A program made the translations under genes and the position numbers. 64,000 bases of DNA. Origin: an archaeon. Lineage in GTDB: Archaea > Nanobdellota > Nanobdellia > Pacearchaeales > GW2011-AR1. Location of the stretch: assembly GCA_027343665.1 (NCBI GenBank), contig DAHWKL010000001.1:313294-377293 (forward strand), given 5' to 3'. Positions 911-53,835 of the stretch are shown piece by piece; within the stretch, counting starts at the first letter, position 1; each line of letters begins with the position of its first letter. The notes below the pieces were generated by a model, which ran no database searches, was not told the origin of the DNA, and was given only the letters and a program-made list of their open reading frames with translations.

Positions 911-944
911 GAAAATTTATAAAAATCATTCCCCAGATTAATCT

Positions 945-1883: not shown

Positions 1884-2088
1884 TCATCAGCTCTCAAAAT
1901 TCAACGGATGCAAACGTACTCATCTACGCCCCTGTAAATATCACCTGACCTGTCATAATCAATCTTGAAAAAAGAGAATTCTTTATGATGAAATCAGAAG
2001 ATTAGAATCTCACATCCGTTGAGAATATTCCAATAATATCTTTTCTTTCTATTGAAATATTTATAAATATAAAAATCTTTGAAAAGAA

Positions 2089-7036: not shown

Positions 7037-7155
7037 ATTCCTTCTCTCTAAAAGTTGTTATAGATCTTATCTGATTATTTTGGCAAATTCAAAAACATGA
7101 CTTGCCCAGATCAAATTTTCCATAAATTTAAAAATTAAAATACACTGAAGAGGAT

Positions 7156-7578
7156 ATGGATAAAAAAAGAGGGCAGCTGAATCTGTCTTTCGGGATGATA
7201 TTCTCGATAATACTCATCATCGTATTTTTAGGAGCAGCGTTTTATGCAATACAGCAGTTCTTATCTTTCCAAAGCAACCTCCAGACGCAGAAATTCTACA
7301 GCTCACTCCAGTCTGATGTGAACACTGCATGGACAAGCACAGAAGCTTCAACTCCTGCGACTTACATTGTCCCTTCTGGTGTAAAACAAGTATGCTTCAC
7401 AAATAATCAGAACGGAAATGTGTACTTTGTGGAAAAGATCCCTCAACTCGGGCAATACATTGATCACCTGAATATAACGAAAGATTATTGCGAGAATGTA
7501 ACAAATGGAAAAGTGCAATTTTTGATTCAAAAAAATTTCGGCGAACCTCTTGTGAACGTCAGACCGGTGGGAGCTTAA
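7156..7578 (+). CDS. type IV pilin-like protein (class III signal peptide)
   Basis: N-terminus MDKKRGQ followed by a hydrophobic helix, matching the archaeal [KR]G[Q] prepilin pattern; 140 aa. Confidence 0.6.
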   Translation: MDKKRGQLNLSFGMIFSIILIIVFLGAAFYAIQQFLSFQSNLQTQKFYSSLQSDVNTAWTSTEASTPATYIVPSGVKQVCFTNNQNGNVYFVEKIPQLGQYIDHLNITKDYCENVTNGKVQFLIQKNFGEPLVNVRPVGA

Positions 7579-7589
7579 GCTTCTGAAAA

Positions 7590-8537
7590 ATGCCAAAGAA
7601 AAAAACCTATGCAAAAAAAATAAGCTTCAGGAAAAAAGGATTTCTTGATCTGCCGTTTTCATGGATTTTCGCTTTAATCGTCGGAGCGATAATACTTTTT
7701 GGAGCAATATACTTTGCGACAAGAGCATCCAACGTTGCAAGCACAGCTTCATCAGCTCAGGCAGGGGCTTCACTTGTCAATCTCCTTTCCCCACTTGAAA
7801 ACGGGGTCGGATCTGCAAATATGATAACAATAACTCTCCCCTTGAATTCAAGAATAGACCATCAGTGCAGTTCGTTCGGAAACTTCGGAAAAGATACGTT
7901 ATCTGTAGATCAGTTCATAAACGGCAAATGGGGCGGAACCGAAGTGAGCATATCTTCACAAAATAAATATATCTTCTCCCCGGTATTTTTCCAGGGAAAA
8001 ACATTCAATGTATTCTCAGAACCATTTAATCTGCCATTCAATGTGGCAGACCTTATGTATATGACAAATGCACAGACCAAATATTGCTTTGTCAACATGC
8101 CTTTGAGTTCAGAAACAGCACTCATGAATTTGAACCAAAATAATTTTGAGTTCAGCACCTGCTCTGGAAACGCTACAAAGATATGCTTCAACTCAAATTC
8201 AAATTGCGATATCAATGTCAACACAAATGCGGGAACAGTAGAAAAAAGCGGATCCATAATGTATTTCGAAGGAGATGCACTCATGTATGCGGCGATATTT
8301 TCGGACAAAAGCATATATGAATGTGAGCTCGGAAGGCTCATGAAAAGAACCTCTTCCCTGACTGATATATATCTGGAAAAAGCCACAATACTCCAAAAAG
8401 AAGGTTGCACCCCCCAGACGAATTTTGCCGGATTCCAGAATTCACTTAATGGCTACAATAGTTCAGAAGATATATTCACTGTTTCAAATTATGCAAACCA
8501 GCTTGAAAACGGAGGTTATCAGTGCAATTTATGGTAG
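7590..8537 (+). CDS. pilin-like protein (class III signal peptide)
   Basis: Basic N-terminus ending RKKGF then a hydrophobic helix; 315 aa; contiguous with neighbouring pilin-like genes. Confidence 0.5.
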   Translation: MPKKKTYAKKISFRKKGFLDLPFSWIFALIVGAIILFGAIYFATRASNVASTASSAQAGASLVNLLSPLENGVGSANMITITLPLNSRIDHQCSSFGNFGKDTLSVDQFINGKWGGTEVSISSQNKYIFSPVFFQGKTFNVFSEPFNLPFNVADLMYMTNAQTKYCFVNMPLSSETALMNLNQNNFEFSTCSGNATKICFNSNSNCDINVNTNAGTVEKSGSIMYFEGDALMYAAIFSDKSIYECELGRLMKRTSSLTDIYLEKATILQKEGCTPQTNFAGFQNSLNGYNSSEDIFTVSNYANQLENGGYQCNLW

Positions 8538-9046
8538 GAAAAAAAGGACAGATAAAAATACAACAAATGATATTTCTAATACTTGGCCTCACAATATTCT
8601 TTGTTATAGCCGGGCTGTTCATCCTTTCAATGCTGCTTTCAGGGCTGAAATCTTCACAAACGATGACAAGCGAACAGCAGGCGACACTTTTGGTGGAAAG
8701 TCTTGCAAACTCCCCTGAATTCGCCTGCGGAAGCACTTTTGGAACCCAAAGGACAGACTGCATAGACATGGACAAAGCATTTGCGTTAAAAGATCAGGCA
8801 ACAAAATATCAGCAATTCTGGGATGTCCAGGGAGTTGAGATTCAAAGACTTTATCCAGAAACAAACTTCAGCATCGAATGCACAAATGAAACTTATCCCA
8901 ATTGCGGACGTATGACAATACTCAACGGGACAAGCGGAACGGAATATTCCGCATATGTATCTCTTTGCAGGAAATACGAATCGGAAAATTCATCTTACAA
9001 TAAATGTGAACTGGGAGAACTTTCAGTGAGGGTTTCAAATGGATAA
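8522..9046 (+). CDS. type IV pilin-like protein (class III signal peptide)
   Basis: N-terminus MVGKKGQ followed by a hydrophobic helix; 174 aa; overlaps the upstream gene. Confidence 0.6.
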   Translation: MQFMVGKKGQIKIQQMIFLILGLTIFFVIAGLFILSMLLSGLKSSQTMTSEQQATLLVESLANSPEFACGSTFGTQRTDCIDMDKAFALKDQATKYQQFWDVQGVEIQRLYPETNFSIECTNETYPNCGRMTILNGTSGTEYSAYVSLCRKYESENSSYNKCELGELSVRVSNG

Positions 9047-9503
9047 AAAAGCACAATCTGAACTTGTGGGATTTGCAATAATAGTCATAATCGTGTCTCT
9101 TATAATCCTTATATTTGTCGCCATTTCCCTTCAGCAGAAACCTGAGACGGTCCAAAGTTACCAAACAGAGTCTTTTGTGCAGTCGATTCTGCAATACACA
9201 ACAACTTGCCAGGAAAACGGAAATTATGAGTCTTATCTTGACCTTATAGAACTTTGCGGGCAGGGAGGAACATGTGATAATGGAACAAGCGCATGCAGTT
9301 CTTTGAAGTCAATCTCTAAAAGTCTTTTAGACAGCTCATGGCAGACCGGAAGTAAATACCCTGTCAAAGGTTACCAGTTTCTTATAAATTATGCTGGAAA
9401 TTATATAATAAACGAAACCAAAGGGAACCTTACGCTGCAAAGCAAAGGCTCAAACCAAGTTTTCAATGGGAACTTACAGATAACTTTCAAAGCATATTAT
9501 TAA
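9039..9503 (+). CDS. type IV pilin-like protein (class III signal peptide)
   Basis: N-terminus MDKKAQ followed by a hydrophobic helix; 154 aa; overlaps the upstream gene. Confidence 0.55.
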   Translation: MDKKAQSELVGFAIIVIIVSLIILIFVAISLQQKPETVQSYQTESFVQSILQYTTTCQENGNYESYLDLIELCGQGGTCDNGTSACSSLKSISKSLLDSSWQTGSKYPVKGYQFLINYAGNYIINETKGNLTLQSKGSNQVFNGNLQITFKAYY

Positions 9504-9841
9504 ATCTTAAGGTGTATAACAACTTCATCAACAACAATTTTGGGTTTATGCCTCTGGCGATTGTTGACCTTTTCTTTCACTATCTCCAAGAAACCGAATC
9601 TCTCAAGAAGCTTGACATCATCAATCACTGCCTTGAAAGGTCTGTCGAGTATTTTTGTGAGATCATAGATAGATGAGGGTTCCTTATATTTCACAACATC
9701 AAGAAGTTTTGCTTTTTCCCTTGAAAGAAGTTTCCTTAATGAAGAGAGGCTCTCAAAGTCATACTTATCCTTTCCCCTTAAGAACCTGAATGTTCCCTCA
9801 GTGTCTTTTATAGTGACCTCTCTTACCCTTATTTTTACCAT
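9500..9841 (-). CDS. putative winged-helix DNA-binding protein
   Basis: 113-aa ORF; central segment fits a helix-turn-helix plus wing pattern; transcribed divergently from the surface-protein gene. Confidence 0.4.
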   Translation of the reverse strand: MVKIRVREVTIKDTEGTFRFLRGKDKYDFESLSSLRKLLSREKAKLLDVVKYKEPSSIYDLTKILDRPFKAVIDDVKLLERFGFLEIVKEKVNNRQRHKPKIVVDEVVIHLKI

Positions 9842-9946
9842 TTTTCAAGCCAAAAAGGTTTGGTTTATAATATATATTATTTTCAGATATATATAGTTTT
9901 CTGAATTCCTCCTTATAGAGGAAGACTTGTAACTTTCATAAAAAGA

Positions 9947-10030
9947 CACCAAAAGCTTTATAAATAAAACCTTGAAAAAGGGGGTTTCAGGAACGAAAAC
10001 CGAAAGTTTTCCTCCAAAGCTTTTTAAAGA
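9947..10030 (+). promoter_or_regulatory. two tandem BRE/TATA-like promoter elements upstream of the S-layer-like gene
   Basis: cAAAAGCTTTATAAAT at ~9951-9966 and cAAAGCTTTTTAAAG at ~10015-10029, both matching archaeal BRE (A-rich) plus TATA consensus. Confidence 0.35.
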
Positions 10031-10242
10031 AAAATTTGTTCTCTCTATTACACTCAATTGAGGGTGGTCTTATAGGGAATAAGCCCATGCATTTGCAAGA
10101 CACGAATGCGGGCATAATGCTCTATAAGTGCTGGGAAGTTCCCCTATAGCTTTTCAGCAAAGACTTCGATTGCCTTAGGCGGTCGGGAAGGCCAAAAGCT
10201 TTCCAACCAGAGAGGTAAAAAGGAGGATAAAAGAAAAACAAA

Positions 10243-12558
10243 ATGAAATTAAGTTTCAAAAAGATCTCAGCAGTTCTTGGCTCAGTAATAATGGCCGGAG
10301 CGACTTTGGGACTTGCTGCTGCAGCAAATTACCCACAACCTTTCGTAACAACGAATGGTGTGGCAAATGTAGCTGTAGTATATGGTGCTAATTCACCAGG
10401 GGGAGCAGGCGGAAACGATGCTGTCCAGGCAGGTATGGTTGCAAACTCCTTAGGAACATATGTTAAGGGAGGAACAACAAATATCTCAGGTGAAAATGTT
10501 CTTCTCCAAATGCCTTCATCCTACCTACACGTAGGTAACGGAATAGATCAGGTTTTTGGAAGATCTGTAACAAAGAGCGATATGCCAACTTTGTTAGCTG
10601 ATGGCACTTACCAAGACTCTCAAAACAGTGACCACACATACACTCAAAAGATTGATGTGGCTAACTTGACTCTCCAGCAATTTGACCTTGAACAGTTTGA
10701 CTCTAATGTAACTTCAACTACTCCTTCAATAGGATTCCCATTGAGCTCTGGAGCTAATGTATTGAATTATACATTAACTTTCACAAGCCCAGTTAATGCA
10801 AGTTTGATGCAGTACACTAACCTTAACCTTATGGGTTCAAGTTATTACGTGCTTTCAGCTACTACCAGTTCATTGACACTTTTAGACTCTGCAGCAACTG
10901 CAAGTCTTAGCAATGTCGGAAGTTCAACTACATTAAATGTGGGAGGAACAACTTATGCTGTAAGTGTTGCTTATGTAGATTCAAGCAACGTAAAGCTTAC
11001 AATCAATGGTCAAACAACAGACACATTGCAAAAAGGAAGCACTTACAAATTAAATGACGGCTCTTATGTCGGTATAAAAGACATATTAGCTCAAAACTAT
11101 CAAGGCGGAGCAAGTGAAGTGGACTTTAGCATTGGTGCAGGAAAGATTATCCTGACCAGTGGACAGAATGTCCAAGTGGGCACAAATTCCGTTAGCGGAG
11201 TTACATCCACTATAGGAGTTACTAGCAACAAGATATCAAACATATCTATCCAATGGGATACAGGAGACACAGGCGCAATCACACAGAGTATGCCTTTGGC
11301 TATGCCAGCATTTGACGGTGTTAAATTAACATTTGGTGGGATGACCTATCCAAAGAGTGAAAACACAACAGTAACAAATGATGGGAATACAGCAGTCAAA
11401 GTATCAACAACTTTGGAAGGCGGTTCTGTTTCATTAGATGTCCTTGGAATAGACAAGACAACTGGGAACTTCACTACAATCGGACAAGATTCAAACAACT
11501 TGTTAGTCACGAACAATTCAGTGTACCTGAATAAGGTCCACCAGAATAGTGAGTTTGTGATTTCGGGAAACAGCGGTAAAGTCGCTGAGTCACATGTATA
11601 TAAAGTGACAAGTTTCTCAAACACAACAGAGAATGGGCTTCAAGTTATATTGACTGATGAGGCTAACACTGCAAACCAGGTTACATTGACTAACAACCAA
11701 GCTAGTTCAGTAGGAGTTAACACAGGAATAACCTTGACTCCATCTATCGACTATGCCGCAAAGAATGTAAGCTTCACAGCAGGCGGAACCGGAGCAAATT
11801 TCGCTACCCTTTACACAAATGATGGGTTAAAGATGGCTCTTCCAACTTCTGTGCATGTTAATGGTAATTCGAGCAAACCTACAGTCCAATCTTACAACCT
11901 TCAGTTCACTGAAGCTGATAAGAACGGAAATATTGCATCTGGAAACAAATTCAATATAACCGTAGGAAGTGTTGGATCAACAACAAAGCAGACTTCTGTA
12001 ACAGGAGTCAGCGGTGCAGGTAACGCAGTAGAGGTAGGGAACACAAACGTGTATGATTACACAGTAGCTTCTCCACTTGCAACTGCTATATCCTACAACC
12101 AGGGACCAACACAGGAAACTGCTGCATTGGTATACCACGGCGGTGAATCTTATGGCCAGCTTTACTTAGCATCTCCAAGTGCAACCATCTCAGGTGGTAG
12201 CGCATTAGGAAATGTTTTAGTAACTGACAGTGAAGTTTCATCCGTTTCAGGAAAAGACTTAGTGATTGTTGGTGGTAGCTGTATTAACTCAGCTGCTGCA
12301 ACTGCATTAGGTGTTCCTTACGGAACTTGTGGCGATGCTTTCACAGCTGCTACAGGTGTTGGATCAGGACAATTCCTTATAAAGGGAGTTAGCGGAGTAC
12401 TAAGTGCTCCATTAGCTTTAGTTGTCGCTGGTTATGATGCTGCTGACACAGTTAACGCTGTAACTTACTTGACTCATAACACTGTTGATACTTCAAGTAC
12501 CTACAAAGGAACTTCAGGTACACAGGCAACGATGCAAGTAGCTAACAGCTCTGCTTAA
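10243..12558 (+). CDS. putative S-layer / major cell-surface protein
   Basis: 771 aa; typical signal peptide (hydrophobic stretch then AAAA); Thr/Ser/Gly/Asn/Val-rich and Cys-poor; strong SD (AAGGAGGAT); followed by a poly-T terminator. Confidence 0.6.
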   Translation: MKLSFKKISAVLGSVIMAGATLGLAAAANYPQPFVTTNGVANVAVVYGANSPGGAGGNDAVQAGMVANSLGTYVKGGTTNISGENVLLQMPSSYLHVGNGIDQVFGRSVTKSDMPTLLADGTYQDSQNSDHTYTQKIDVANLTLQQFDLEQFDSNVTSTTPSIGFPLSSGANVLNYTLTFTSPVNASLMQYTNLNLMGSSYYVLSATTSSLTLLDSAATASLSNVGSSTTLNVGGTTYAVSVAYVDSSNVKLTINGQTTDTLQKGSTYKLNDGSYVGIKDILAQNYQGGASEVDFSIGAGKIILTSGQNVQVGTNSVSGVTSTIGVTSNKISNISIQWDTGDTGAITQSMPLAMPAFDGVKLTFGGMTYPKSENTTVTNDGNTAVKVSTTLEGGSVSLDVLGIDKTTGNFTTIGQDSNNLLVTNNSVYLNKVHQNSEFVISGNSGKVAESHVYKVTSFSNTTENGLQVILTDEANTANQVTLTNNQASSVGVNTGITLTPSIDYAAKNVSFTAGGTGANFATLYTNDGLKMALPTSVHVNGNSSKPTVQSYNLQFTEADKNGNIASGNKFNITVGSVGSTTKQTSVTGVSGAGNAVEVGNTNVYDYTVASPLATAISYNQGPTQETAALVYHGGESYGQLYLASPSATISGGSALGNVLVTDSEVSSVSGKDLVIVGGSCINSAAATALGVPYGTCGDAFTAATGVGSGQFLIKGVSGVLSAPLALVVAGYDAADTVNAVTYLTHNTVDTSSTYKGTSGTQATMQVANSSA

Positions 12559-12658: not shown

Positions 12659-12679
12659 GATTTTTCCGACGGAAAAATC
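12659..12679. promoter_or_regulatory. palindromic candidate operator GATTTTTCCGACGGAAAAATC
   Basis: 10-bp arms with a 1-nt centre; core TTCCGACGGAA recurs at 41544-41554 and, as a 10/11 match, at 16805-16815; lies ~55 bp upstream of the 12729 start. Confidence 0.4.
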
Positions 12680-15030: not shown

Positions 15031-16674
15031 TTACCTTCTTCTTAAAATCTTTACCGCAACAAAGATTATTGCCACAAGGAGTATTATATTAAGAGCAACT
15101 ATTCCGACTAACTCCCAATTCACATTTGAACCTAAATTATTCCAGAAAGACCCCTGAGCAACATTTAATGAAACTTGTTTTTGAGAAACAATTTGCCCGT
15201 TAGATGTTATTATAAGATTAAAATTCTGTGCTCCCTGCACACTTGGATTTATAGCAAAGGTCATATAAAGATCTTTGGTAGATGATGGACTCAAGGTAAA
15301 TGTGCTGTCACTCATGTTTACAAGATTAGCCCATGAATTATACCCATTAGGAGCAAGAACAAAAGTTGCAGTTTGAGTGTCATTGTTTGTTACATAAGCT
15401 TGGATAGTAACTTCTTTACCAGCTTGTGCTTCACCAGATACTATTGTTGCACCGACGATAGGTGGGTTTATTGAACAACCTCCTGAAACATTCAGATAAA
15501 CTGTTTTCACAGCCTGATCGTTGTTGCTGCTCTCATAAAGATTGTTGTTATCATCATAAACGCTAAGCTGTATTCCGTAAATCTGCTGGTGAGCGTTTTT
15601 TGGAATCACGAAATTAGCTGAGAAATCCTGAGAACTAAAAGCACTTATGCTTCCAAGTTTTATAATCTGATTCAAACCTAATTTCTGATTATAAATAACA
15701 ACATAAGAACCACTTGGCTGATCATTACTCCCAATATTATAGATAGTTCCTGCAAGATTCACATTTGAACTGCATGAAACAGATCCATTTAGGGTATCTC
15801 CATTTTGAAGAATATTTCCATTCATAGTCACCTCGGAAGGCACCATGAAATCATCGCCAGTTTCAACATAGCCATCTCCGCTAACTGAAGAACATGTCTG
15901 ATTGCCATCATAGATTGAATTGACAGAGGTATCCCTTATTGTTCCGGTTGCTTTGACATAAAGCACAACATTTCCTCCCGAATTATCAATCCTATTCATC
16001 CCGTTATTGAGTGGGAAGTTTATGCTTACAGTTTTATCATTCCCTGAATTAAGGCTGAAAGTGTTCAGAGTTCCGCTATCTATTTTATTGCCATCAGTAG
16101 TATAAAGAGCCCACTGAACTTTTACATTTCTCAGATCATAATTTCCATTATTTTCAATATCTACCTTTGCAGTTATATTGTCTAAAAGGTACCATGTACT
16201 TGAATCCCCATAGCCACTTGTTATACTGAAATCCGGAGAATCAACACGAAGAATATTAACAACATTAGGTGTTCCTTGGCAGAAATTCGTGTTCTTGAAA
16301 TAGATTGTTCCGTAACTTACCCCATTCACCTTCAATGTTGTGGAATAAGAACTTGAATCAAGGAAGTTAAAATACCCATTTGGGTCTGAGACGCTATAAT
16401 TTACAGAAACCGACTTTGAAGATTTATTAAGAGAAAATGAATCGTTTGAAACCGTAAAACTGACAACACCAGTAGTGCCTTGTCCAGAAGTTATCTGGGG
16501 GATGGAGAGATTTACACTCTCACTTGTATTGCTTGAAATAGTTATTGTAAATTGCCCGCTTGATCCTGTGATTTGACTTGGAACTCCTGTTACTGTCAGA
16601 GTCGCACTTGCAAAGCTCATTAAAAACAAACTAGCAAAAACGAGCGCAAAGATTATACCTGTCTTCTTTTCCAT
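15031..16674 (-). CDS. secreted surface protein with C-terminal TM plus RRR sorting signal (candidate archaeosortase substrate)
   Basis: 547 aa; N-terminal signal peptide; Ser/Thr/Asn/Gly-rich; C-terminus ...LVGIVALNIILLVAIIFVAVKILRRR. Confidence 0.6.
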   Translation of the reverse strand: MEKKTGIIFALVFASLFLMSFASATLTVTGVPSQITGSSGQFTITISSNTSESVNLSIPQITSGQGTTGVVSFTVSNDSFSLNKSSKSVSVNYSVSDPNGYFNFLDSSSYSTTLKVNGVSYGTIYFKNTNFCQGTPNVVNILRVDSPDFSITSGYGDSSTWYLLDNITAKVDIENNGNYDLRNVKVQWALYTTDGNKIDSGTLNTFSLNSGNDKTVSINFPLNNGMNRIDNSGGNVVLYVKATGTIRDTSVNSIYDGNQTCSSVSGDGYVETGDDFMVPSEVTMNGNILQNGDTLNGSVSCSSNVNLAGTIYNIGSNDQPSGSYVVIYNQKLGLNQIIKLGSISAFSSQDFSANFVIPKNAHQQIYGIQLSVYDDNNNLYESSNNDQAVKTVYLNVSGGCSINPPIVGATIVSGEAQAGKEVTIQAYVTNNDTQTATFVLAPNGYNSWANLVNMSDSTFTLSPSSTKDLYMTFAINPSVQGAQNFNLIITSNGQIVSQKQVSLNVAQGSFWNNLGSNVNWELVGIVALNIILLVAIIFVAVKILRRR

Positions 16675-37672: not shown

Positions 37673-38050
37673 ATGTCTTCAGAAAAAATTTATGTAATCC
37701 ATGAACATCATGCATCTCATCTGCATTGGGATCTGCGTCTTGAATTTGACGGCGTTCTGAAATCTTGGGCAATTCCAAAAGAACCCCCCATATCAAAAGG
37801 AATCAAACGTCTTGCAGTCCAAGTTCCGGATCATGAGAAAAGTTATGCAAAATTCGAGGGGGAAATTCCTGAAGGTCAATATGGTGCAGGCAAAGTCAAA
37901 ATATGGGATAAAGGAACCTACGAACTTGTCGAAAAAGACGAAAAGAAAATCATCATCAACATTGATGGTAAAAAACTGAAAGGAAGATATGTATTGCTTA
38001 ACTCAAAACTTGGCGGAAAAAAAGAAAATTGGCTTTTTTTCAAAGAATAA
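37673..38050 (+). CDS. stand-alone DNA ligase D 3'-phosphoesterase (LigD-PE) domain protein
   Basis: HEHHASHLHWDLRLE...VLKSWAIPKEP...KRLAVQVPDH...FEGEIPEGQYGAGKVKIWDKG closely follows the LigD PE motif order; 125 aa. Confidence 0.8.
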   Translation: MSSEKIYVIHEHHASHLHWDLRLEFDGVLKSWAIPKEPPISKGIKRLAVQVPDHEKSYAKFEGEIPEGQYGAGKVKIWDKGTYELVEKDEKKIIINIDGKKLKGRYVLLNSKLGGKKENWLFFKE

Positions 38051-38051
38051 A

Positions 38052-41000
38052 TTAATTTTTGTAAATAATAATCTTATTACCTACTTTTTCCTCAAGACTT
38101 TTCACCCTTTTGTTAGATTTTTCAACTAAGAAGTTCAGCTTCCTTGCTTCTCTTACTATTGAATCATCATAAGCAGATTCTTCAATCAAAGATCTTGCTT
38201 TCGATAGGACCCCTGCTTTGTAATCCCATCCCGAAAGCTCATCAATTACAGGGTTGAGGAAATATCTTGATGCCAGAATCGGTTCATTATTTTTTCCATA
38301 TCCTCCAACGATAGTTCCATTGACTGAAGCAGACTTTCCTATCATCTTTGCATAAGGTATCGTAAGCTGTTTCCCTGCATCAAGTACTCCCATCTTTCCA
38401 CCCTGAGCCATTGCACCGGGATGATGCCTGTCACCCACCCAATAATATTTCGCCGAACTCCTTGTCCTTATCGCCTGAATCGGCATCATATCAATTTCAG
38501 TCTGACCATGCCACATTTTGTGAGCAAAAACTGAATCTATCCCTTTTCCGTCGACACTTGGCAATTTTATATAATCATAATTGAAACTCTGACCGGAAAC
38601 ACTTTGACCAGTCATCAAAACCCTTTGATCCTGGTATTTTCTGTCGAACTGACCCGCTATAACACTGCCCTCTGATTGGCTCTCTTTCTTACCCATCCAG
38701 TGATTGCCCGTACCAACAAAGAAAGGAACACCATTTTCCATAAGTTCTGTATTTATTGGGACTAGAAGTTCATTAAAAGCATTGAGCTGATCTTCAGGTT
38801 TGAATGCAGGAATTCCATCTAAAAATTCCTGAGTGTAAAAATTGACTGCTTCAACTACATCTTTATCGCTTGCATTGTCTTTCCTCATTCTGGCTTCAAG
38901 AATTTTTAATCGGCTCATAAAAGTCACAGGATCTGTGGAATGTGTCAGGTCATCATTTGTAGCAGCTTCTCTCTTTGAGTCGTAACTTCTGAAACCAAGT
39001 TCACCATGAAGACCCTCACTCATAAGGTTTATATCAAATCCCCTGACTCCATAAGCTTGTACTGCCGCGAGTTGTGACGAAGTTATGGTATCCGGATTTG
39101 ACGGCCTTCCGGGAGTTGAATATGATCCGACGTGAAGGTCATTCTGAAGGAAAACTCTTCCGATAATAGGTCTTGCTTTGTCCAACAAATCAGATCTTTC
39201 TTTTTCCAGTTCAATCTTCTCGGATTTATCTTTTGACTCAGCAAGTTTCTTCTCAAGTTCATTGTATCTTTCTCCCAAAGTTGTGGGATTCCCATTATTG
39301 TCTTTAATCGGCATATTAGCAACTCTCTTGAAATACCTGTCATCAAAAAAGATCTCTTCAGGGGATCTGTCAGGATGCTCTATATAAAGAACACTTCCCG
39401 ATATGGTTCCTCCTTTTGCAAGCCTCTTTCCAGCCCAAGTTCCTTTGTTCCCTTTAATCAAAAGTGCACCAAGCTTGGAAAGGTCATGCCTTGTCGGAAC
39501 TTTAATATAAGCAGTTATATGTGCGTCCTTTGCGTATTCCCCCTGAACTGTCGTCGGATCAACAGTGAACTTCCTTTGGGATAAATAACCGTCAGCCCCC
39601 CAGCTCGATAAATAAGCATCAGTATGAGCAAAATCTCTTTTGTCAAATTCTCCCAAAATTTTAGGTCTCTCCCTTCCAGAAAGAACCGCATTTGATATTT
39701 CACCTTCATGAAAAGACTGAACTTTTGCAAAGCTGTTTACTAAAGGTTCATTAGACCATTGTGCATTTGTCCTTGGATGTGAAGTGAAGATTGTTCCGAC
39801 AGGTCTGCTCTTTAAATCCTTCTTTCCTTCAATAGAATGCTGAGGGTCAGGAACTTCGACACTGATTATATCATCCGTATGAAGGAAGACTTTCAGATCT
39901 TCCCTTCCAGAATATTTCTTTATTGCCGGGATGAGGACATCTTCGTAAATCCCTTTGTAAATCTCTTTCTTTATAGTCTCAAGACCTTTTGCCTCTGTAG
40001 GCGTAATTGCAATCTTCTTCGTGAACCAAGCATGGCCTTCCATTTCCTCTACAAGATGACTGCTCGCAAAAGACTCTGCTTCTTTGAGATCATTCTGAGT
40101 CCTCTTCAAATTCTGTTCTGTTTTGTCAAAAGTCCTGTTAACACTTTCTCGATAAGCACTCACTTGCTTCATGCTAGTATTGATATTGTAAAACCTGTTC
40201 CACTCATCTTCAAAAAGAGAATCAAAAGTTTCAAAGTCTCTTCCCAACCTTCCCCTAGCTTTTGCCTTAAGATTTTCTCTTAAAGTTTTATCGAGAGCAT
40301 GTTTTCTTTTTCCATCTTTAGTCTCAAAGAACTCTTTTGTATAAGATTTGAACTCTTTACCATTTTCCGCGAAATCTTTCCCGTTAGCATGCGCCCTCTT
40401 ATCCATAAGAAAATCATAATACTTGTTGACAAGAGCGGATTTTATCTCAGATTTTACAATTAACTCTTTCTGGTCTTCAAGCATTCCTTTGAGCTCAGGG
40501 ATACTCTCTTCCGCATCTTTCATCTTTTGATGAATTTCTCTTAATATAGCAATATTCTTGTCTTCAATTTCACTCTGATTATACTCGTCATTATAACTCC
40601 AGTAAAGATGAAGCTCTCCAAATTGTGGAAGGTTCTTAACCTGGTCAGAAAGCTCAAAGCCCACACTTTCAGCAGCCTCTTCCATAGAATCAATTGTGTT
40701 GACGACGTATTTTTCAAGATTTTTTATCGCTTTTTTGGACAAGTGGGGTCTTCCCAATTCATCATTAAGAAGATTCAACTTTTGTTTTATCATCTCAAAT
40801 TCAACATCATCAATATCAGGATCGGCTTTATTAAGCCCGGTCATTATCGCTCTTTTGTTCTTATTCTTTCCAAAAAGTGTCACTATATCAGGCATTATTC
40901 CACCCTGCATGTGGTAGCTCACAAGATAATCATCAACACCCATTGCCTGCCTTACAATTTTCTCCCCTAAGAAAGCATCATTGTTTGTAAAAAGAGTTCC

Positions 41001-41399
41001 AGTTCCCATCTCACCGCTGAGCCAGTGCATCTTAGTCACCCTATAATCTCCAAAGTTTTTATCCCATCTCAGTTTATTCTGGTTCACCAATGCATTCACA
41101 AGAGATTCATCTTTGGAATAATAACCATTGTTCGTTGGAAGAGAATCTGTTGGAACACCCCATATTCGGGCCACTTTCTCGAAACTTTTTTTCACTTCAT
41201 TGGAAGTTTTTCCTGTTTTCTGTGCAATTGCCTCAAAGCTCGGGACAAAATTATCAAAGATGGAGGAGGTTACAAGAAATCTTCCGACATTGTGAGGTGA
41301 AAGTTCGGCAGCAGCCTTAAGAAAAGCCCTGTCGTCGGAGTTTACAAGAAGGCGTTCCTCAAGAATTTTTGGAACTTTACTGCCCCTTTTTACTTCCAT
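38052..41399 (-). CDS. large hypothetical protein (1115 aa) with coiled-coil middle region and C-terminal metallophosphoesterase-like motif pattern
   Basis: Single uninterrupted ORF; no signal peptide; C-terminal third contains NDLHVG, GTGNHW and GDRHHPG in the order of calcineurin/Mre11-type motifs I, III and V (weak). Confidence 0.5.
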   Translation of the reverse strand: MEVKRGSKVPKILEERLLVNSDDRAFLKAAAELSPHNVGRFLVTSSIFDNFVPSFEAIAQKTGKTSNEVKKSFEKVARIWGVPTDSLPTNNGYYSKDESLVNALVNQNKLRWDKNFGDYRVTKMHWLSGEMGTGTLFTNNDAFLGEKIVRQAMGVDDYLVSYHMQGGIMPDIVTLFGKNKNKRAIMTGLNKADPDIDDVEFEMIKQKLNLLNDELGRPHLSKKAIKNLEKYVVNTIDSMEEAAESVGFELSDQVKNLPQFGELHLYWSYNDEYNQSEIEDKNIAILREIHQKMKDAEESIPELKGMLEDQKELIVKSEIKSALVNKYYDFLMDKRAHANGKDFAENGKEFKSYTKEFFETKDGKRKHALDKTLRENLKAKARGRLGRDFETFDSLFEDEWNRFYNINTSMKQVSAYRESVNRTFDKTEQNLKRTQNDLKEAESFASSHLVEEMEGHAWFTKKIAITPTEAKGLETIKKEIYKGIYEDVLIPAIKKYSGREDLKVFLHTDDIISVEVPDPQHSIEGKKDLKSRPVGTIFTSHPRTNAQWSNEPLVNSFAKVQSFHEGEISNAVLSGRERPKILGEFDKRDFAHTDAYLSSWGADGYLSQRKFTVDPTTVQGEYAKDAHITAYIKVPTRHDLSKLGALLIKGNKGTWAGKRLAKGGTISGSVLYIEHPDRSPEEIFFDDRYFKRVANMPIKDNNGNPTTLGERYNELEKKLAESKDKSEKIELEKERSDLLDKARPIIGRVFLQNDLHVGSYSTPGRPSNPDTITSSQLAAVQAYGVRGFDINLMSEGLHGELGFRSYDSKREAATNDDLTHSTDPVTFMSRLKILEARMRKDNASDKDVVEAVNFYTQEFLDGIPAFKPEDQLNAFNELLVPINTELMENGVPFFVGTGNHWMGKKESQSEGSVIAGQFDRKYQDQRVLMTGQSVSGQSFNYDYIKLPSVDGKGIDSVFAHKMWHGQTEIDMMPIQAIRTRSSAKYYWVGDRHHPGAMAQGGKMGVLDAGKQLTIPYAKMIGKSASVNGTIVGGYGKNNEPILASRYFLNPVIDELSGWDYKAGVLSKARSLIEESAYDDSIVREARKLNFLVEKSNKRVKSLEEKVGNKIIIYKN

Positions 41400-41542: not shown

Positions 41543-41559
41543 TTTCCGACGGAAGAATC
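41543..41559. promoter_or_regulatory. second copy of the TTTTCCGACGGAAGAATC palindromic motif
   Basis: Core TTCCGACGGAA identical to 12664-12674; ~145 bp upstream of the 1115-aa gene start. Confidence 0.35.
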
Positions 41560-41653: not shown

Positions 41654-42469
41654 TTAATCTTCGTCGCCGATCCACCAGTCCATATCAGGAAGAGCTGATA
41701 TATCCTGTCCTCTTGATTTCAAATATCCTCTTGCAAGAAGGTAGAATATCAATCCCAAGCTCTTTCCGCTTTTGTTGTTTCCGATTATCACATAATCTGC
41801 ACCCTGAGAAAAATTATTAGTTCCGCATATCATAAGAACTTTTTTCTTCACATCAAGGGTGTCTTTCAGAGCATTTTTATCAAGCCAATGGTCGGAGATT
41901 ATTGTAAGTTCAGTCTCAAAGAAGTCTTTTAAATTTGTATTAGTCATAATTCCTGCAGGATATTTTTTGGTGAAAACCCTTATTCCGGTGACTTCACTGA
42001 ATTTCATTGCTGCTCTCCATCCAGATTGCCTTTTGCACACAAGAATTACATCTTCAGGATTGAATTTTGAAAGGTATTCAATTCCACCTTTTAACTTTTC
42101 ATCAATCAAATCCGTGTTAAAAATTGCAAGTCCATCAGCTCTTCTTCTGTAAACGTAAGGTTTCATTTCGGGGGTTACTATTCTTGTTCCAAGGTAAATG
42201 CCTGTCTTGACATAATCTTCAAGATCAATGAGCATATCAGCCTTTTTCTTGGCTTTAATCTCCTCTTTCAAAGATTCTGTATCAAGCTTCTCTACTTTTT
42301 CTTCCATAAGCTTTGCAGCTTTCTCTTTAAGTTCTTTGAGTTTGTCTTCTTTCGACTTTGAAGATTTCTCATGTTTCTCTGTCTCTAGTGATTCCGCTTC
42401 AGCTGCTTTGGCGAGCTCTTCGCCTGAAAGCTCTTCAATATCTTCTTTTTCAGTTTTTTTCCTTGCCAT
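41654..42469 (-). CDS. rps2: ribosomal protein S2 (uS2) with ~80-aa Lys/Glu-rich N-terminal extension
   Basis: S2 core (GIYLGTRIVTPEMKPYVYRRRADGLAIFN...); N-terminal charged extension. Confidence 0.8.
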   Translation of the reverse strand: MARKKTEKEDIEELSGEELAKAAEAESLETEKHEKSSKSKEDKLKELKEKAAKLMEEKVEKLDTESLKEEIKAKKKADMLIDLEDYVKTGIYLGTRIVTPEMKPYVYRRRADGLAIFNTDLIDEKLKGGIEYLSKFNPEDVILVCKRQSGWRAAMKFSEVTGIRVFTKKYPAGIMTNTNLKDFFETELTIISDHWLDKNALKDTLDVKKKVLMICGTNNFSQGADYVIIGNNKSGKSLGLIFYLLARGYLKSRGQDISALPDMDWWIGDED

Positions 42470-42530: not shown

Positions 42531-42782
42531 TTACTCTTCAGAGCTTTCCCTTGGCTTTCTCCATTTTGTCAAAATTATCTTGAAACCTATTATTTTCGCA
42601 GTATAGTTTGGCCCCAGAAATCTGAGCATCTCTTCCGAAAGTTTTACCAGTTCCCCTTTATCCCCTCTTGCCGATTTTAGGACAGTGACCTTAACAATCC
42701 TGCATGTGGCAAAATGAACTTTCAGCATTCCCAAAAAATTTTCAGTTATGCCGTTCTTTCCGAGCTGAACTTCTCTTATCAT
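42531..42782 (-). CDS. YhbY/CRS1 (CRM-domain) RNA-binding protein
   Basis: Start at MIREVQLGKNGITENFLG...; matches the YhbY pattern GxNGLTE...IKVK; the longer ORF would overlap tRNA-Gly. Confidence 0.6.
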   Translation of the reverse strand: MIREVQLGKNGITENFLGMLKVHFATCRIVKVTVLKSARGDKGELVKLSEEMLRFLGPNYTAKIIGFKIILTKWRKPRESSEE

Positions 42783-42835
42783 GATATAATCAAGGAGAAT
42801 TACTTTTATAAATTTATAATTGCTCGGTTTTTGAT

Positions 42836-42906
42836 GCGCTAGTGGTCTAATGGTAGAATGCAAGCTTCCCAAGCTTGCGATCCGGGTCCGATTCCCGGCT
42901 GGCGCA
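42836..42906 (+). tRNA. tRNA-Gly (anticodon CCC)
   Basis: 71-nt cloverleaf; anticodon loop UUCCCAA; TATA-like TTTATAAATTTATAA ~25 bp upstream. Confidence 0.8.
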
Positions 42907-42911
42907 TTTCT

Positions 42912-51810: not shown

Positions 51811-53754
51811 ATGGCATGGAACCTCTATGACAAGGGAAAATTTCTGAAACCACTTTGTTTCTCCAATGGTAAAAGCCAGGAAGATGTTGTCGAGGAAGTT
51901 TTGAAACTTATAGATGGGGGAAAACGCGTGATATTCATACACGGAGTGTGCGGGACGGGAAAATCCGCGATCGCACTCAATCTTGCAAGTAAGATAGGAA
52001 AAACTTCTATAGTTGTCCCTGGAAAAACTCTCCAGGCACAGTACAAAAAAGACTATGAAGGCGAGAAATACCTTCTAAAACAAGATGGGAAAAAACTTAA
52101 GATAAGTGTAATAACCGGCAGGAATAACCATCCCTGCAAGTTCCTTCAGGATAACAAAGACGCGATCCCAAAAATAAAAAGAGAGATAAACGCAAAACTT
52201 AATGATATCTTCTCCGGTGTCATGAGAGAGAGAAAAGAAAATGAAAAAGAAAATATGTCAGCAGCAAATCCTGAACTCCCGTGTGATATCGACATAAGGG
52301 AAAAAAACTGGCTCAAAATAAAAGAATACCTTAAACAGAACAAAAAAATCGACATAAGAAATTTCTCATCGGTGAAAGATGTGAAAAGATTAAGCATCGC
52401 GCCGGTATGCCCTTATTGGAGCCCCGTCCTTCCTGAAAGGTATGAGATAAAAAATATGGCGGATTCAAAACAAAGGAAATATGAAGGACTCGACGGAATG
52501 GTTTTCATCCAGTATAAAAGAAAACCGGGCTGCCCATTCTACGAGCAATTTGATTCTTATATAGATTCTGATGTGATAGTGTTCAACTCATTAAAATACA
52601 AACTTGAGACAGCTCTTTTGAGAAAGCCCAGGACAGAAGTCGAAATCATAGATGAATGCGATGAATTCCTAGACAGTTTTTCTAACGAAAGAACAATAAA
52701 TTTTGACAGGTTGCAAAGCGCGCTCATACATGCATTGGGTGCTGGTGAAGGCGAGCAGGATATGATCGAGGAATTATTAGAACTAATCACACATCTTGGT
52801 AGAGATGAGAGAATCGGAGACGCAATAAGAGCAGGGGAGATAATCCCCCTGAAGTCAACCGGGATATATGACATAATCAAGATATTCATAAAAGAGGAAT
52901 GGTTAAAATCCATAGACGATGAAAGCTACATTTTTGACGTCTTAGAAACCTCAAAGATGTTCATGGAATTTTTGGATGAAAGCTATGTGCTCTTCACAAA
53001 AAAGGAGAGAGGAATAAATGCGGAAATCGTGACGACAAATCTTGCAAAAAAATTCAAACAGTTAGTCGAGAAAAATAAAGTTATAGTTCTCATGTCAGGA
53101 ACACTCCATTCGGATGAAGTTCTGAAAAATATCTTCGGACTTACTAATTTTGATAAAGTCGATGCAGAAACGCAAAGCCAGGGGAAAGTTATTGTGAAAA
53201 GCACAGGTCTTGAGATGGATTGTAAATATTCCAATTTCTCTTCCGAAAAATTCACCCGGGAGGATTACTTAAAAGCACTTGATAAATGTATAAAGGAAGC
53301 TCCAAGACCAACTCTCGTCCATGTGAATGCATTTTTGGATCTTCCGTCTGAAAGTGAGATAAGAGAATTCGAAATTGAAAACTTACCATCAAGAGATAAG
53401 ATAAAAGAAATCCAGGAAGAGGACAAAAAAGGCAGACTTACACAGGAGTTTAAGGATGGAAAAAGAGAAATACTTTTCTCGACACGTGATTCACGGGGGG
53501 TTGATTTTCCGGGAGAACAATGCAGAGGAATAGTCTTCACAAAATATCCAAACCCAAATGTTCAGGATCCATTTTGGAAAATCCTCATGAAAACAAAACC
53601 TGAAAGCTATTGGAATTTCTATCGCGACAAAGCCAAGAGGGAATTTCTTCAGAAAATATACAGAGGAATCAGATTCAAGGAAGATTATATAACTTTGATG
53701 AGCCCTGATACAAGAGTCTTGGAGATGGCAGAGAGAGAATTTGGAGAGAGATAA
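51811..53754 (+). CDS. XPD/Rad3-like Fe-S cluster DNA helicase
   Basis: Walker A GVCGTGKSA; four Cys between motifs I and II (HPC, LPC, VCPYW, GCPFY); DECD box; C-terminal ILFSTRDSRGVDFPGEQCRGIVF Rad3-type helicase C domain. Confidence 0.65.
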   Translation: MAWNLYDKGKFLKPLCFSNGKSQEDVVEEVLKLIDGGKRVIFIHGVCGTGKSAIALNLASKIGKTSIVVPGKTLQAQYKKDYEGEKYLLKQDGKKLKISVITGRNNHPCKFLQDNKDAIPKIKREINAKLNDIFSGVMRERKENEKENMSAANPELPCDIDIREKNWLKIKEYLKQNKKIDIRNFSSVKDVKRLSIAPVCPYWSPVLPERYEIKNMADSKQRKYEGLDGMVFIQYKRKPGCPFYEQFDSYIDSDVIVFNSLKYKLETALLRKPRTEVEIIDECDEFLDSFSNERTINFDRLQSALIHALGAGEGEQDMIEELLELITHLGRDERIGDAIRAGEIIPLKSTGIYDIIKIFIKEEWLKSIDDESYIFDVLETSKMFMEFLDESYVLFTKKERGINAEIVTTNLAKKFKQLVEKNKVIVLMSGTLHSDEVLKNIFGLTNFDKVDAETQSQGKVIVKSTGLEMDCKYSNFSSEKFTREDYLKALDKCIKEAPRPTLVHVNAFLDLPSESEIREFEIENLPSRDKIKEIQEEDKKGRLTQEFKDGKREILFSTRDSRGVDFPGEQCRGIVFTKYPNPNVQDPFWKILMKTKPESYWNFYRDKAKREFLQKIYRGIRFKEDYITLMSPDTRVLEMAEREFGER

Positions 53755-53755
53755 A

Positions 53756-53835
53756 CGCCCCCGCCAGGAATCGAACCTGGAAGCCCAAAGGGCCCGGATC
53801 TCAAGTCCGGTGCAATACCATTATGCGACGGAGGC
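53756..53835 (-). tRNA. tRNA-Ser (anticodon UGA)
   Basis: 80 nt; anticodon loop CUUGAGA; long variable arm GCCCUUUGGGC; starts 2 nt after the helicase stop. Confidence 0.8.

Follow-up and report, generated by a model that had tools for sequence, protein, structure and literature searches.

Stand-alone 3'-phosphoesterases (PE) of the LigD type have already been documented in archaea without Ku or LigD (PMC3082917), and two such enzymes, from Methanosarcina barkeri (MbaPE) and from Ca. Korarchaeum (CkoPE), are represented in the PDB as 3P43 and 3P4H, respectively. The binuclear metallophosphoesterases that act on DNA include the PolD small subunit DP1 (5IHE, 9F2A), which combines an OB fold with a calcineurin-like 3'-5' exonuclease, as well as Mre11/SbcD. 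A further case is the MPE of Pseudomonas putida, which PMC7826289 describes as a Mn-dependent ssDNA endonuclease, encoded in a repair operon and yielding mixed 3'-PO4/3'-OH products.

In the window analysed here (the whole 64-kb stretch of DNA, from a DPANN archaeon of the Pacearchaeota/Woesearchaeota group), two convergent genes lie tail-to-tail, with a single base separating their stop codons. An ORF check found both exactly at the positions and lengths first assigned to them:

37673..38050, plus strand: small gene, ORF of 125 aa, stand-alone LigD-type 3'-phosphoesterase (PE)
38052..41399, minus strand: large gene, ORF of 1115 aa

In our reading, to which we assign a probability of about 0.6, the locus encodes two separate phosphoesterases of different folds, namely an ordinary PE and a divergent metallophosphoesterase, whose genes are adjacent as a clade-level feature and which may or may not work together.

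The 125-aa protein matches Pfam LigD_N (PF13298, E = 5.7e-39), scores 158 bits against TIGR02777 (cutoff 144) and aligns end to end with both MbaPE (E = 5.7e-48) and CkoPE (E = 2.3e-42). With residue equivalences taken from the alignment to 3P43/3P4H and from PMC3082917, all six catalytic residues were found to be kept: H12, H18 and D20 (Mn ligands), R22 and H54 (phosphate binding), and Y58. These data bear out the initial annotation, which had called the protein a textbook LigD-PE module. It is as minimal in size as the two archaeal enzymes, likewise has no fused ligase or polymerase, and shows no substantive difference from them, apart from its origin in a DPANN genome. From this close homology to characterised archaeal enzymes, Mn dependence and the removal of a 3'-phosphate or a 3'-terminal ribonucleoside, which regenerates a 3'-OH, are predicted for the protein. 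Among 38 ORFs of the 64-kb window scanned with Pfam, no Ku, ligase or polymerase domain was detected, in agreement with what had been claimed for the vicinity of the gene; this had been presented as an oddity, but given the archaeal precedent (PMC3082917) it is not unusual.

The 1115-aa protein gave no sequence match in Pfam, NCBIfam, PHROG or the PDB, and searches of Pfam, NCBIfam and the PDB stayed negative even when family profiles were used. It has 20 full-length homologues (37-72% identity), and a profile search gathered about 94 relatives (representative clusters), some 50 of which are distant and share mainly the C-terminal ~450 residues. The organism names of the homologues are Pacearchaeota, Woesearchaeota and Nanoarchaeota, while a few records labelled Alphaproteobacteria, Methanosarcinales or Methanococcoides were taken as mis-binned. 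The protein thus founds a DPANN-restricted family that lacks Pfam or NCBIfam annotation, one distant member of which carries the JGI name 'predicted phosphodiesterase'.

The C-terminal part of this protein contains the following elements, with conservation figures referring to a family alignment of 66-68 sequences whose overall identity is about 20%:

38265..39164, minus strand: residues 746-1045, calcineurin-like binuclear metallophosphoesterase (AF2, Foldseek, PF00149 in the distant member P0069)
39126..39140, minus strand: motif I, D754-L-H756-V-G758 (DxHxG); D 96%, H 95%, G 96% conserved
39003..39020, minus strand: motif II, S794-E795-G-L-H798-G799, equivalent to G-D-x-x-H-G of distant members
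38697..38708, minus strand: motif III, G898-N899-H900-W901; G and H 100%, N 98% conserved
38670-38672, minus strand: invariant E910 after motif III (100% conserved)
38517..38522, minus strand: motif IV, H960-K961; H960 100% conserved
38421..38432, minus strand: motif V, D990-R-H992-H993, equivalent to G-H-x-H of distant members

The initial annotation had read D-x-H-x-G, G-N-H and G-D-x-H-H elements in that order, and these correspond to D754-L-H-V-G758, G898-N-H-W901 and G989-D-R-H-H993, whose conservation is far from chance. G898, H900, E910, H960 and H992 are invariant, and the conservation of D754, H756 and N899 stands at 95-98%; at position 990, 80% of the sequences have D and most others H. 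Across the family alignment, these motifs grade into fully canonical metallophosphoesterase motifs: SEGLHG aligns with NGDIVHG (P0069), NGDMVHG (P0065) and AGDMIHG (P0091), and the counterparts of motif V in distant members are GHVHQ, GHWHN and AHNHH. Moreover, PF00149 (Pfam Metallophos) exceeded its gathering threshold in three of the ten distant members tested (P0065, P0069 and P0091), the match in P0069 covering profile positions 4-190 of 191 and mapping to residues 750-993 of the window protein.

In the clade to which the window protein belongs, motif II carries E instead of D, and motif V carries D instead of its first H. The Trp that replaces an acidic residue after GNH is also real; it had been counted as a weakness of the assignment, but it represents clade-level variation and not a false motif. 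Such non-canonical motifs (E in place of D, W in place of D/E, D in place of H), together with the occurrence of B-subunits and Vps29 among the structural matches, might point to a catalytically dead scaffold, as in eukaryotic polymerase B-subunits or Vps29. This is highly improbable, since every ligand position keeps a metal-binding side chain and the invariance of G898, H900, H960 and H992 at such overall divergence is not expected of a dead site. Conserved metal-binding residues stand at each of the seven metal-ligand positions and at that of the catalytic His in motif III, so the domain is most likely active, as a Mn/Mg-dependent phosphodiesterase that would act on nucleic-acid ends or single strands.

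An AF2 model of residues 575-1115 (pLDDT 93.3, pTM 0.90) added two elements on either side of the phosphoesterase domain:

39279..39617, minus strand: residues 595-707, five-stranded beta domain of OB-like topology (DSSP on the AF2 model)
38082..38228, minus strand: residues 1058-1106, long C-terminal helix (H484-532 in the C-terminal AF2 model)

In model numbering, DSSP assigned E21-25, E31-37, E54-60, H66-74, E93-100 and E106-112 to the beta domain, with the helix between strands 3 and 4. The domain, which in the model looks like an OB-like barrel, sits directly N-terminal of the phosphoesterase domain; the latter has a helical insert of ~85 residues between motifs II and III. When the model was compared with the PDB by Foldseek, all 25 matches at E<=1e-3 were metallophosphoesterases (DP1, PAP, Mre11, Rv0805, GpdQ and SbcD included), the top one being PolD DP1 (E = 2.3e-6). 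BFVD returned 33 matches at E<=1e-3, and every named one was a phosphoesterase, a nuclease or DP1-like; target TM-scores reached 0.65, and query-normalised TM-scores were just 0.25-0.35 in both PDB and BFVD because of the inserts. The calcineurin/Mre11-type assignment of the C-terminal third, put forward at first as weak, is therefore strengthened by the motif continuum, by PF00149 in homologues and by a pLDDT-93 model whose only matches are metallophosphoesterases. Transitive homology and predicted structure, on which the fold assignment rests, support a view of the C-terminal ~500 residues as a putative OB-like barrel plus a binuclear metallophosphoesterase that, although divergent, belongs structurally with DP1, Mre11 and SbcD.

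DP1 and phage 'DNA polymerase II small subunit'-like proteins are the best Foldseek matches. The 1115-aa protein shares the domain order of DP1, in which a beta-barrel precedes the phosphoesterase, and its five-motif di-metal site is intact. However, it reaches no DP1 family model threshold, it adds about 570 N-terminal residues (including a helical insert of ~220 residues) as well as the ~85-residue insert and the long C-terminal helix, and no DP2 partner was seen near its gene. If the C-terminal module descended from the PolD small subunit (DP1/B-subunit lineage), the protein might be a replication-associated 3'-5' exonuclease or a polymerase accessory, with an N-terminal extension gained in Woese/Pacearchaeota, for which a bacterial-type B7 PolB has been reported (PMC7544198). 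The alignments to the OB and PDE domains of DP1 span 524-552 columns, more than the phosphoesterase domain alone, and Pol-alpha B subunits were also matched; several of the top, significant BFVD matches bear the annotation DNA polymerase II small subunit, the strand order of the beta domain is OB-like, and P0091 weakly matches the NCBIfam DP1 model NF003118 (E = 6.7e-4). Such a descent nevertheless seems distinctly unlikely to us, as the PF04042/DP1 model was above threshold in no member (with one weak match in 37), the E-values of Mre11, PAP and Rv0805 differ by no more than one to two orders of magnitude, the RMSD of 16-21 Å on the long alignments means a poor global superposition, and no locus with Pfam lists has a DP2-like neighbour.

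With Mre11/SbcD, the protein shares the metallophosphoesterase fold (significant Foldseek matches to 5DNY, 3AV0, 4TUG and 4LTY), motif I and, in canonical family members, the G-D-x-x-H of motif II, while its coiled-coil-like helices recall the Mre11-Rad50 partnership. However, models specific to Mre11 or SbcD do not match it, a capping domain was not recognised, its helical region has no ABC-ATPase head, and a Rad50/SbcC ATPase is neither fused nor adjacent in any examined locus.

Non-nucleases such as purple acid phosphatase, Rv0805 and GpdQ received scores similar to those of DP1 and Mre11, which leaves the substrate class between readings. These matches, along with 5'-nucleotidase, would suit an enzyme that has no role in DNA repair and acts on cyclic nucleotides, 2',3'-cyclic/3'-phosphate RNA ends, nucleotides or phosphoproteins, and the neighbourhood is indeed dominated by translation/RNA genes (uS2, Sua5, NFACT-R, CRS1_YhbY, an rRNA operon and NMD3). 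We judge a non-DNA substrate unlikely: the top structural matches are nucleases, and a GDxxH motif II with an OB-like barrel ahead of it is typical of nucleic-acid nucleases (Mre11/SbcD motifs). An RNA end, besides, would still be a nucleic acid.

The N-terminal half of the large protein is organised as follows:

41145..41399, minus strand: residues 1-85, small head made of helices, perhaps of winged-helix type (AF2 helices, pLDDT 85-91)
40590..41114, minus strand: residues 96-270, conserved alpha/beta domain (66-sequence alignment, AF2 secondary structure)
39909..40580, minus strand: residues 274-497, helical/coiled-coil-like insert of ~220 aa (AF2)
39720..39902, minus strand: residues 500-560, beta segment with family-conserved H507, N545 and S549 (AF2, alignment)

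The head gave weak profile matches to Z-alpha/Lrp HTH (E = 0.07-0.3) and, in distant members, to DnaD_N (E about 0.01). The alpha/beta domain region has family-wide conserved residues (E130, G134, G145, G166-G167, P170, D271 and N274) and no match in Pfam or the PDB; hhalign related it to the C-terminal MPE domain with a probability below 1%. In the insert, AF2 placed helices at 274-336, 347-358, 371-385, 392-405, 410-453 and 467-497, and only weak coiled-coil/SMC-type matches were obtained. The protein has no transmembrane segment and no cysteine, and the early picture of a large soluble protein with a coiled-coil-like middle (helices 274-336, 410-453 and 467-497) holds. A full-length AF2 model reached a mediocre pLDDT of 64.5, and a structure search with it found nothing. 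Head, alpha/beta domain and insert probably serve in oligomerisation, scaffolding or substrate handling.

Upstream of the large gene, a motif had been singled out in the promoter region:

41544..41554, no strand assigned: palindromic TTCCGACGGAA, 145 bp upstream of the ATG

The motif is present, with 3 exact copies in the window against 0.07 expected. It is genome-specific and not conserved, being absent from all 31 related loci examined, and the flanks of its copies share no similarity.

In about 11 dereplicated lineages, spanning 40-72% identity, the PE gene is found no more than 1.3 kb away from the large gene, always inside a conserved block (uS2 / large gene / PE). The 3' ends of the two genes overlap by 27 nt in close relatives; one or two genes are inserted at some loci, and in L018, the one rearranged orientation, the PE gene has moved upstream and is divergent, yet still adjacent (158 bp apart). 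The remaining orthologue lineages, roughly half of the total, do not have the PE gene beside the large gene. Clade B (38-43% identity) has in its place a conserved 151-aa protein of unknown kind, PE is likewise absent near the large gene in L005, L026, L027, L028 and L040, and none of the three loci examined in the distant clade has it nearby. Elsewhere the flanking slot is occupied by an Ada Zn-binding gene, by a UDG with RadA nearby, or by a HerA-like DUF87 ATPase. The tail-to-tail adjacency is a clade-level feature of the uS2 block and not a family-wide property. As for the DNA-end-processing pair suggested by the initial annotation, the genes are co-conserved in related genomes, but always together with uS2.

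These observations bear on whether the two proteins form a genuine two-enzyme module, in which the large enzyme would incise or resect damaged or blocked ends leaving some 3'-phosphates, and PE would heal these to 3'-OH; the polymerase or ligase that uses the healed ends would come from another locus. The persistence of the adjacency over such divergence, through the L018 rearrangement and the gene insertions, argues for it, as do the 3'-end overlap, the repair genes found in the same slot and the precedent of a metallophosphoesterase nuclease yielding 3'-PO4 ends, as described in PMC7826289. Yet the convergent genes are not co-transcribed and hence form no operon; uS2 accompanies the pair just as faithfully wherever it occurs, a pattern that plain block synteny explains; and PE is missing near half of the orthologues and in the distant clade. 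We regard such a module as possible, if doubtful, and functional pairing of PE and the large protein as unproven.

The adjacency of the two genes would nevertheless fit a scenario in which both enzymes act on DNA ends. By its description in PMC7826289, the P. putida MPE is likewise a binuclear metallophosphoesterase, one that works as a nuclease in DNA repair, albeit of an architecture and taxonomic range entirely unlike those of the 1115-aa protein, and the mixed ends reported there give a rationale for pairing a metallophosphoesterase with a 3'-phosphatase. If a metallophosphoesterase left a 3'-phosphate on some of its product ends, the activity of PE is just what it would require.

Two convergent genes are the subject of this part of the analysis:

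37673-38050, plus strand, 125-aa stand-alone LigD-type 3'-phosphoesterase (PE)
38052-41399, minus strand, 1115-aa protein (hereafter the large protein)

Both reading frames were found as the initial annotation had described them, with a single base separating their stop codons. The smaller product, which had been taken for a LigD-PE module, proved to be one: it scored 133 bits against Pfam PF13298 (LigD_N; E 5.7e-39, cutoff 31.1) and 158.3 bits against TIGR02777 (curated cutoff 144). It could be aligned end to end with the PEs of M. barkeri (3P43, E 5.7e-48) and Ca. Korarchaeum (3P4H, E 2.3e-42), both of which are, like the window PE, stand-alone and archaeal, and have been characterised biochemically and structurally. 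The PE superfamily fold is an eight-stranded beta-barrel, which the window protein presumably shares, given its full-length homology to these two structures. In the alignment, H12, H18, D20, R22, H54 and Y58 correspond to H9, H15, D17, R19, H51 and Y55 of the Korarchaeum enzyme (CkoPE), and the six equivalent residues are essential by mutagenesis in both CkoPE and the M. barkeri enzyme MbaPE (PMC3082917). In the family active site two histidines and an aspartate are Mn ligands, an arginine and a histidine bind the phosphate, and a tyrosine is also present (PMC3082917). Because of the family matches, the full-length alignment and the retention of all six catalytic residues, the window PE can be classed from its sequence as a typical representative of an established family, with its active site intact.

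Members of the PE family catalyze Mn-dependent 3'-phosphomonoesterase and 3'-ribonucleoside resection reactions, and the NHEJ module of bacteria and archaea comprises Ku plus the ligase, polymerase and PE of LigD. As already remarked on first reading, no partner of this kind lies near the gene: neither Ku, nor an ATP-dependent ligase, nor a primase-polymerase was detected by Pfam among the 38 window ORFs scanned, or in the Pfam lists of those related loci that carry such lists. Archaeal stand-alone PEs lacking a fused ligase or polymerase are already on record (PMC3082917).

The large protein, which contains no cysteine and no predicted membrane segment, matched nothing in Pfam, NCBIfam, PHROGs or the PDB sequences (phmmer). 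Profile searches of the PDB with three different alignments (full length, 69 sequences, phosphoesterase domain alone) returned only coiled-coil, HTH or chance matches. There are 20 close homologues of similar length (37-72% identity), and searching 1.84 billion representative proteins with a profile gave 94 clusters, about a dozen of them full-length orthologues and some 50 of them 800-1100-aa proteins whose best match fell in the C-terminal ~450 residues. Nearly all homologues carry a Pacearchaeota, Woesearchaeota or Nanoarchaeota label. The members of the clusters that bear a name come almost entirely from archaeal MAGs, and one distant member is called a 'predicted phosphodiesterase' by JGI. 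Further word-indexed searches mostly recovered the known clade again, together with seven distant members labelled 'archaeon' or 'predicted phosphodiesterase'. A few family members bear the deposited labels 'Alphaproteobacteria bacterium', 'Methanosarcinales archaeon' or 'Methanococcoides sp. SA1' (loci L028, DASPMU010000100.1, and L030, and profile-search member P0114); they most probably lie on DPANN contigs that were mis-binned or are contaminants. A phage origin was considered and discarded, as the C-terminal half had no tblastn match in phage genomes.

The calcineurin-like superfamily is characterized by five ordered metal-ligand motifs (DxH, GD, GNH[DE], H and GHxH). All five are present, in order, within residues 746-1045 of the large protein, in the form NDLHVG / SEGLHG / GNHW / HK / DRHH. 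The motifs picked out in the initial annotation are real, being the most conserved positions of the entire protein in alignments of 66-68 sequences: G898, H900, E910, H960, H992 and G1028 are 100% conserved, and D754, H756, G758 and N899 are 95-98% conserved. The window substitutions of D by E in motif II and of H by D in motif V leave side chains that can still bind metal. GNH is not followed by an acidic residue, and the tryptophan found there had been counted against the assignment; this reservation can be dropped, since the position is simply variable in the family (W, Y, N, F or G). A motif table revealed a continuum, in the same columns, from the window form to canonical metallophosphoesterase motifs in distant members, the set of P0069 being fully canonical (TDVHFG / NGDIVHG / GNHG / H / GHVHQ). 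While the window protein itself had no match to PF00149 (Metallophos), three of the ten distant members tested exceeded its gathering threshold of 21.5 bits (P0065, 26; P0069, 23.9; P0091, 22). The P0069 match spans profile positions 4-190 of 191, equivalent to window residues 750-993, from motif I to motif V. The motif continuum and the PF00149 matches in distant members thus establish, transitively and at the level of sequence, the homology of the large protein to the calcineurin-like superfamily.

Structure prediction led to the same fold. A full-length AlphaFold2 model built from 17 sequences had a pLDDT of 64.5, with a poor C-terminal third, and Foldseek found nothing below E 0.29 with it. 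The model of residues 575-1115, from the 69-sequence alignment, reached a pLDDT of 93.3 and a pTM of 0.90. At E<=1e-3 this model had 25 matches in the PDB, and 25/25 were metallophosphoesterases, in agreement with the calcineurin/Mre11-type fold initially proposed; the superfamily fold is a four-layer alpha/beta sandwich. Among viral models (BFVD) there were 33 matches at the same threshold, all the named ones being phosphoesterase, nuclease or DP1-like, and several of the top ones were annotated 'DNA polymerase II small subunit', with target-normalised TM-scores up to 0.65. The query-normalised TM-scores were low (0.25-0.35), because the domain has ~85 extra, helical residues inserted between motif II and motif III, as well as a long C-terminal helix. 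Homology and predicted fold together identify residues 746-1045 as a putative calcineurin-like binuclear metallophosphoesterase in which every ligand position is conserved.

The closest PDB matches were to the proofreading exonuclease subunit DP1 of PolD (9F2A, 2.3e-6; 5IHE, 8.5e-6), followed by purple acid phosphatase, Mre11, Rv0805, GpdQ and SbcD, with polymerase-alpha B subunits just beneath the 1e-3 cutoff. In the AlphaFold2 model, the ~110 residues N-terminal of the phosphoesterase domain follow the order beta1-beta2-beta3-helix-beta4-beta5, which is the strand order of an OB fold, and the DP1 alignments cover 524-552 columns, longer than the phosphoesterase domain alone, at an RMSD of 16-21 A. 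These features are suggestive of a DP1-like arrangement of OB and phosphodiesterase domains. The large protein could accordingly be imagined as a DP1-derived replication factor, a reading that we find quite unlikely: PF04042 had no match in scans of the family, neither it nor NF003118 was matched above threshold, and the sole DP1 match in 37 distant members was that of P0091 to NF003118 (18.7 bits, E 6.7e-4, cutoff 445). The protein cannot be assigned with confidence to the DP1 family.

Mre11 and SbcD have a partner, Rad50/SbcC, that is usually encoded adjacently. No Mre11- or SbcD-specific model matched the window protein or the 10 + 37 family members scanned; a Rad50/SbcC ABC-ATPase was absent from the scanned window ORFs and from the Pfam lists of related loci; and within the protein chain the NCBIfam scan of 37 distant members gave only weak, coiled-coil-driven SMC/Rad50 matches. 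Since it lacks a family-model match, a Rad50/SbcC partner and an identified capping domain, the large protein is, by these comparisons, not a member of Mre11/SbcD. Literature searches turned up no specific account of such a family, nor of the status of PolD or Mre11 in Pace- and Woesearchaeota. The large protein is a calcineurin-like superfamily member whose architecture is undescribed and which is confined to DPANN archaea.

Its N-terminal half received no family assignment from PDB profile search, Foldseek or Pfam, and a Pfam scan of this half at E<=5 in all 17 orthologues gave noise alone. It consists of a helical head that faintly suggests a winged helix (residues 1-85), an alpha/beta domain (96-270; conserved family-wide are E130, G145, G166-G167, P170, D271 and N274), long helices (274-497, AlphaFold2) and a beta segment (500-560) with conserved H507 and S549. 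We also asked whether the alpha/beta domain and residues 500-560 might be a second, degenerate metallophosphoesterase split by a helical insert, forming a tandem pseudo-dimer; the register looked suggestive, but the hhalign score was insignificant (probability <1%), and the idea was abandoned. The N-terminal half may provide scaffolding or oligomerisation.

The phosphoesterase domain is predicted to be active, because the E-for-D and D-for-H ligands can still bind metal and because invariance of motif residues at ~20% overall identity speaks against a dead site; by the same token, a catalytically dead scaffold appears highly improbable. The G-D-x-x-H form of motif II is typical of Mre11-type nucleases, and the canonical family members have it. 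Together with DP1, Mre11 and SbcD as best structural relatives and the OB-like barrel preceding the domain, this points to nucleic-acid ends as the probable substrate; next to such relatives, action on a non-DNA substrate seems unlikely.

We then compared the neighbourhoods of 55 related loci. Homologues in clade A are 40-72% identical to the window protein, and in ~11 dereplicated lineages of this clade uS2 is followed by the large gene and then by a convergent PE. At one extreme the large gene and PE overlap by 27 nt, and at the other they lie 1.25 kb apart. The overlap occurs in 71%-identity relatives (L001, at 8023-8049; also L002-L004 and L017), where the 3' ends of the two genes lie on opposite strands, so that convergent transcripts would overlap. 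Clade B (38-43% identity) has a conserved neighbourhood of its own, distinct from that of clade A, with a PrmA-like methyltransferase gene divergent upstream of the large gene, and no PE. Departures from the clade A order, the downstream gene of clade B and other neighbours were as follows:

L018 (clade A): PE upstream, divergent, 158 bp away
L009 (clade A): Ada Zn-binding gene between large gene and PE
L022 and L025 (clade A): small membrane ORF between large gene and PE
L024 (clade A): two unknown ORFs between large gene and PE
L013 8412-8867 (minus), L007 12127-12582 (minus), L044-L046 and L054 (clade B): conserved 151-aa protein without Pfam match, convergent downstream, 84-100% identical
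L005: UDG gene directly downstream of the large-gene homologue, same strand, 37-bp gap; RadA 5.5 kb upstream
L005 2690-7372, plus strand: 1560-aa protein without Pfam match, between RadA and the homologue
L026 6726-8096, minus strand: HerA-like ATPase (DUF87, E 5.7e-14), convergent with the homologue, 148 bp away
L027: NMD3 as neighbour of the homologue

HerA is an archaeal end-resection factor, and the varied DNA-repair genes that recur beside the large gene hint mildly at a DNA-related role. Three distant-clade loci had unrelated housekeeping neighbours.

These data bear on the proposal that the two proteins form a DNA-end-processing pair. The pair is co-conserved in other genomes, its adjacency being kept in the ~11 lineages, so the refutation envisaged on first reading does not hold; but it is kept solely within a block of synteny to which uS2 belongs just as much, and not family-wide; moreover, the convergent orientation precludes co-transcription. 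A logic for cooperation does exist, since a metallophosphoesterase nuclease, P. putida MPE, can leave 3'-phosphate ends (PMC7826289). By analogy, the large protein would leave 3'-phosphate ends, which PE would then heal. The functional pairing is unproven, and a true two-enzyme module strikes us as possible, if rather doubtful.

The exact palindrome TTCCGACGGAA occurs three times in the window (0.07 expected), with its central A always on the plus strand:

3017-3027, within ORF 2898-4724
12664-12674, intergenic
41544-41554, intergenic, upstream of the large gene

The copies share no flanks and none was found in 31 related loci, so the palindrome was rejected as a conserved regulatory element of the large gene; it may serve as a site of protein binding specific to this genome.

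An SSU-tRNA(Ala)-LSU rRNA operon and an RNase P RNA, both of archaeal type, show the window to be archaeal, and the labels of the protein homologues place it in a DPANN genome. It also holds the following features:

182-910, plus strand, PCNA gene, followed by nine ORFs on the same strand (182-12558 in all)
15031-16674, minus strand, 547-aa ORF without Pfam match
41654-42469, minus strand, uS2, with a Lys/Glu-rich N-terminal extension of ~100 residues; Pfam covers residues 188-249 only
42531-42872, minus strand, CRS1/YhbY homologue, a 113-aa TTG-start ORF recognized by comparison with L011 and L022
51671-51763, plus strand, tRNA-Thr(CGT), 93 nt
53756-53835, tRNA-Ser, abutting the 3' end of an XPD-like helicase gene (51811-53754)

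The nine ORFs after PCNA encode 312, 270, 608, 771, 140, 315, 174, 154 and 771 aa, and the six of them that were scanned had no Pfam match. Both 771-aa products are rich in S, T, G and N and are probably secreted or on the surface, as is typical of DPANN; by BLASTP they are not paralogues of each other (E 0.035). The uS2 extension is kept in relatives, whose uS2 measures 270-309 aa. The length of tRNA-Thr(CGT) suggests an intron. As called, the CRS1/YhbY ORF overlaps a tRNA-Gly (42835-42907, plus strand); translation probably begins at the internal Met of 'MIREVQLGKNG', and with that start the overlap disappears.

DPANN archaea have tiny genomes, and much of their conserved gene content is without assigned function. 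In the boldest reading, to which we give a probability of roughly 15%, the large-protein family would be a DPANN-specific single-chain nuclease machine, joining a DP1/Mre11-type exonuclease module to its own coiled-coil scaffold and taking the place of a standard factor for end processing or proofreading (Mre11-Rad50 or PolD DP1) lost from these reduced genomes, with one clade pairing it with PE in Ku-independent end healing. Irrespective of the actual function, here is a ~1100-residue protein conserved across Pace-, Woese- and Nanoarchaeota-type genomes, amid housekeeping genes, and invisible to Pfam and NCBIfam. The predicted DP1/Mre11-like di-metal phosphoesterase and OB-like barrel give this conserved 'hypothetical' a testable idea, namely a metal-dependent nuclease acting on DNA or RNA ends, and the value of PE is that of a putative partner, which could be assayed for 3'-phosphatase activity with the products of the large enzyme as substrate. 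The large protein thereby points to a way of processing ends or of proofreading that may be specific to this lineage.
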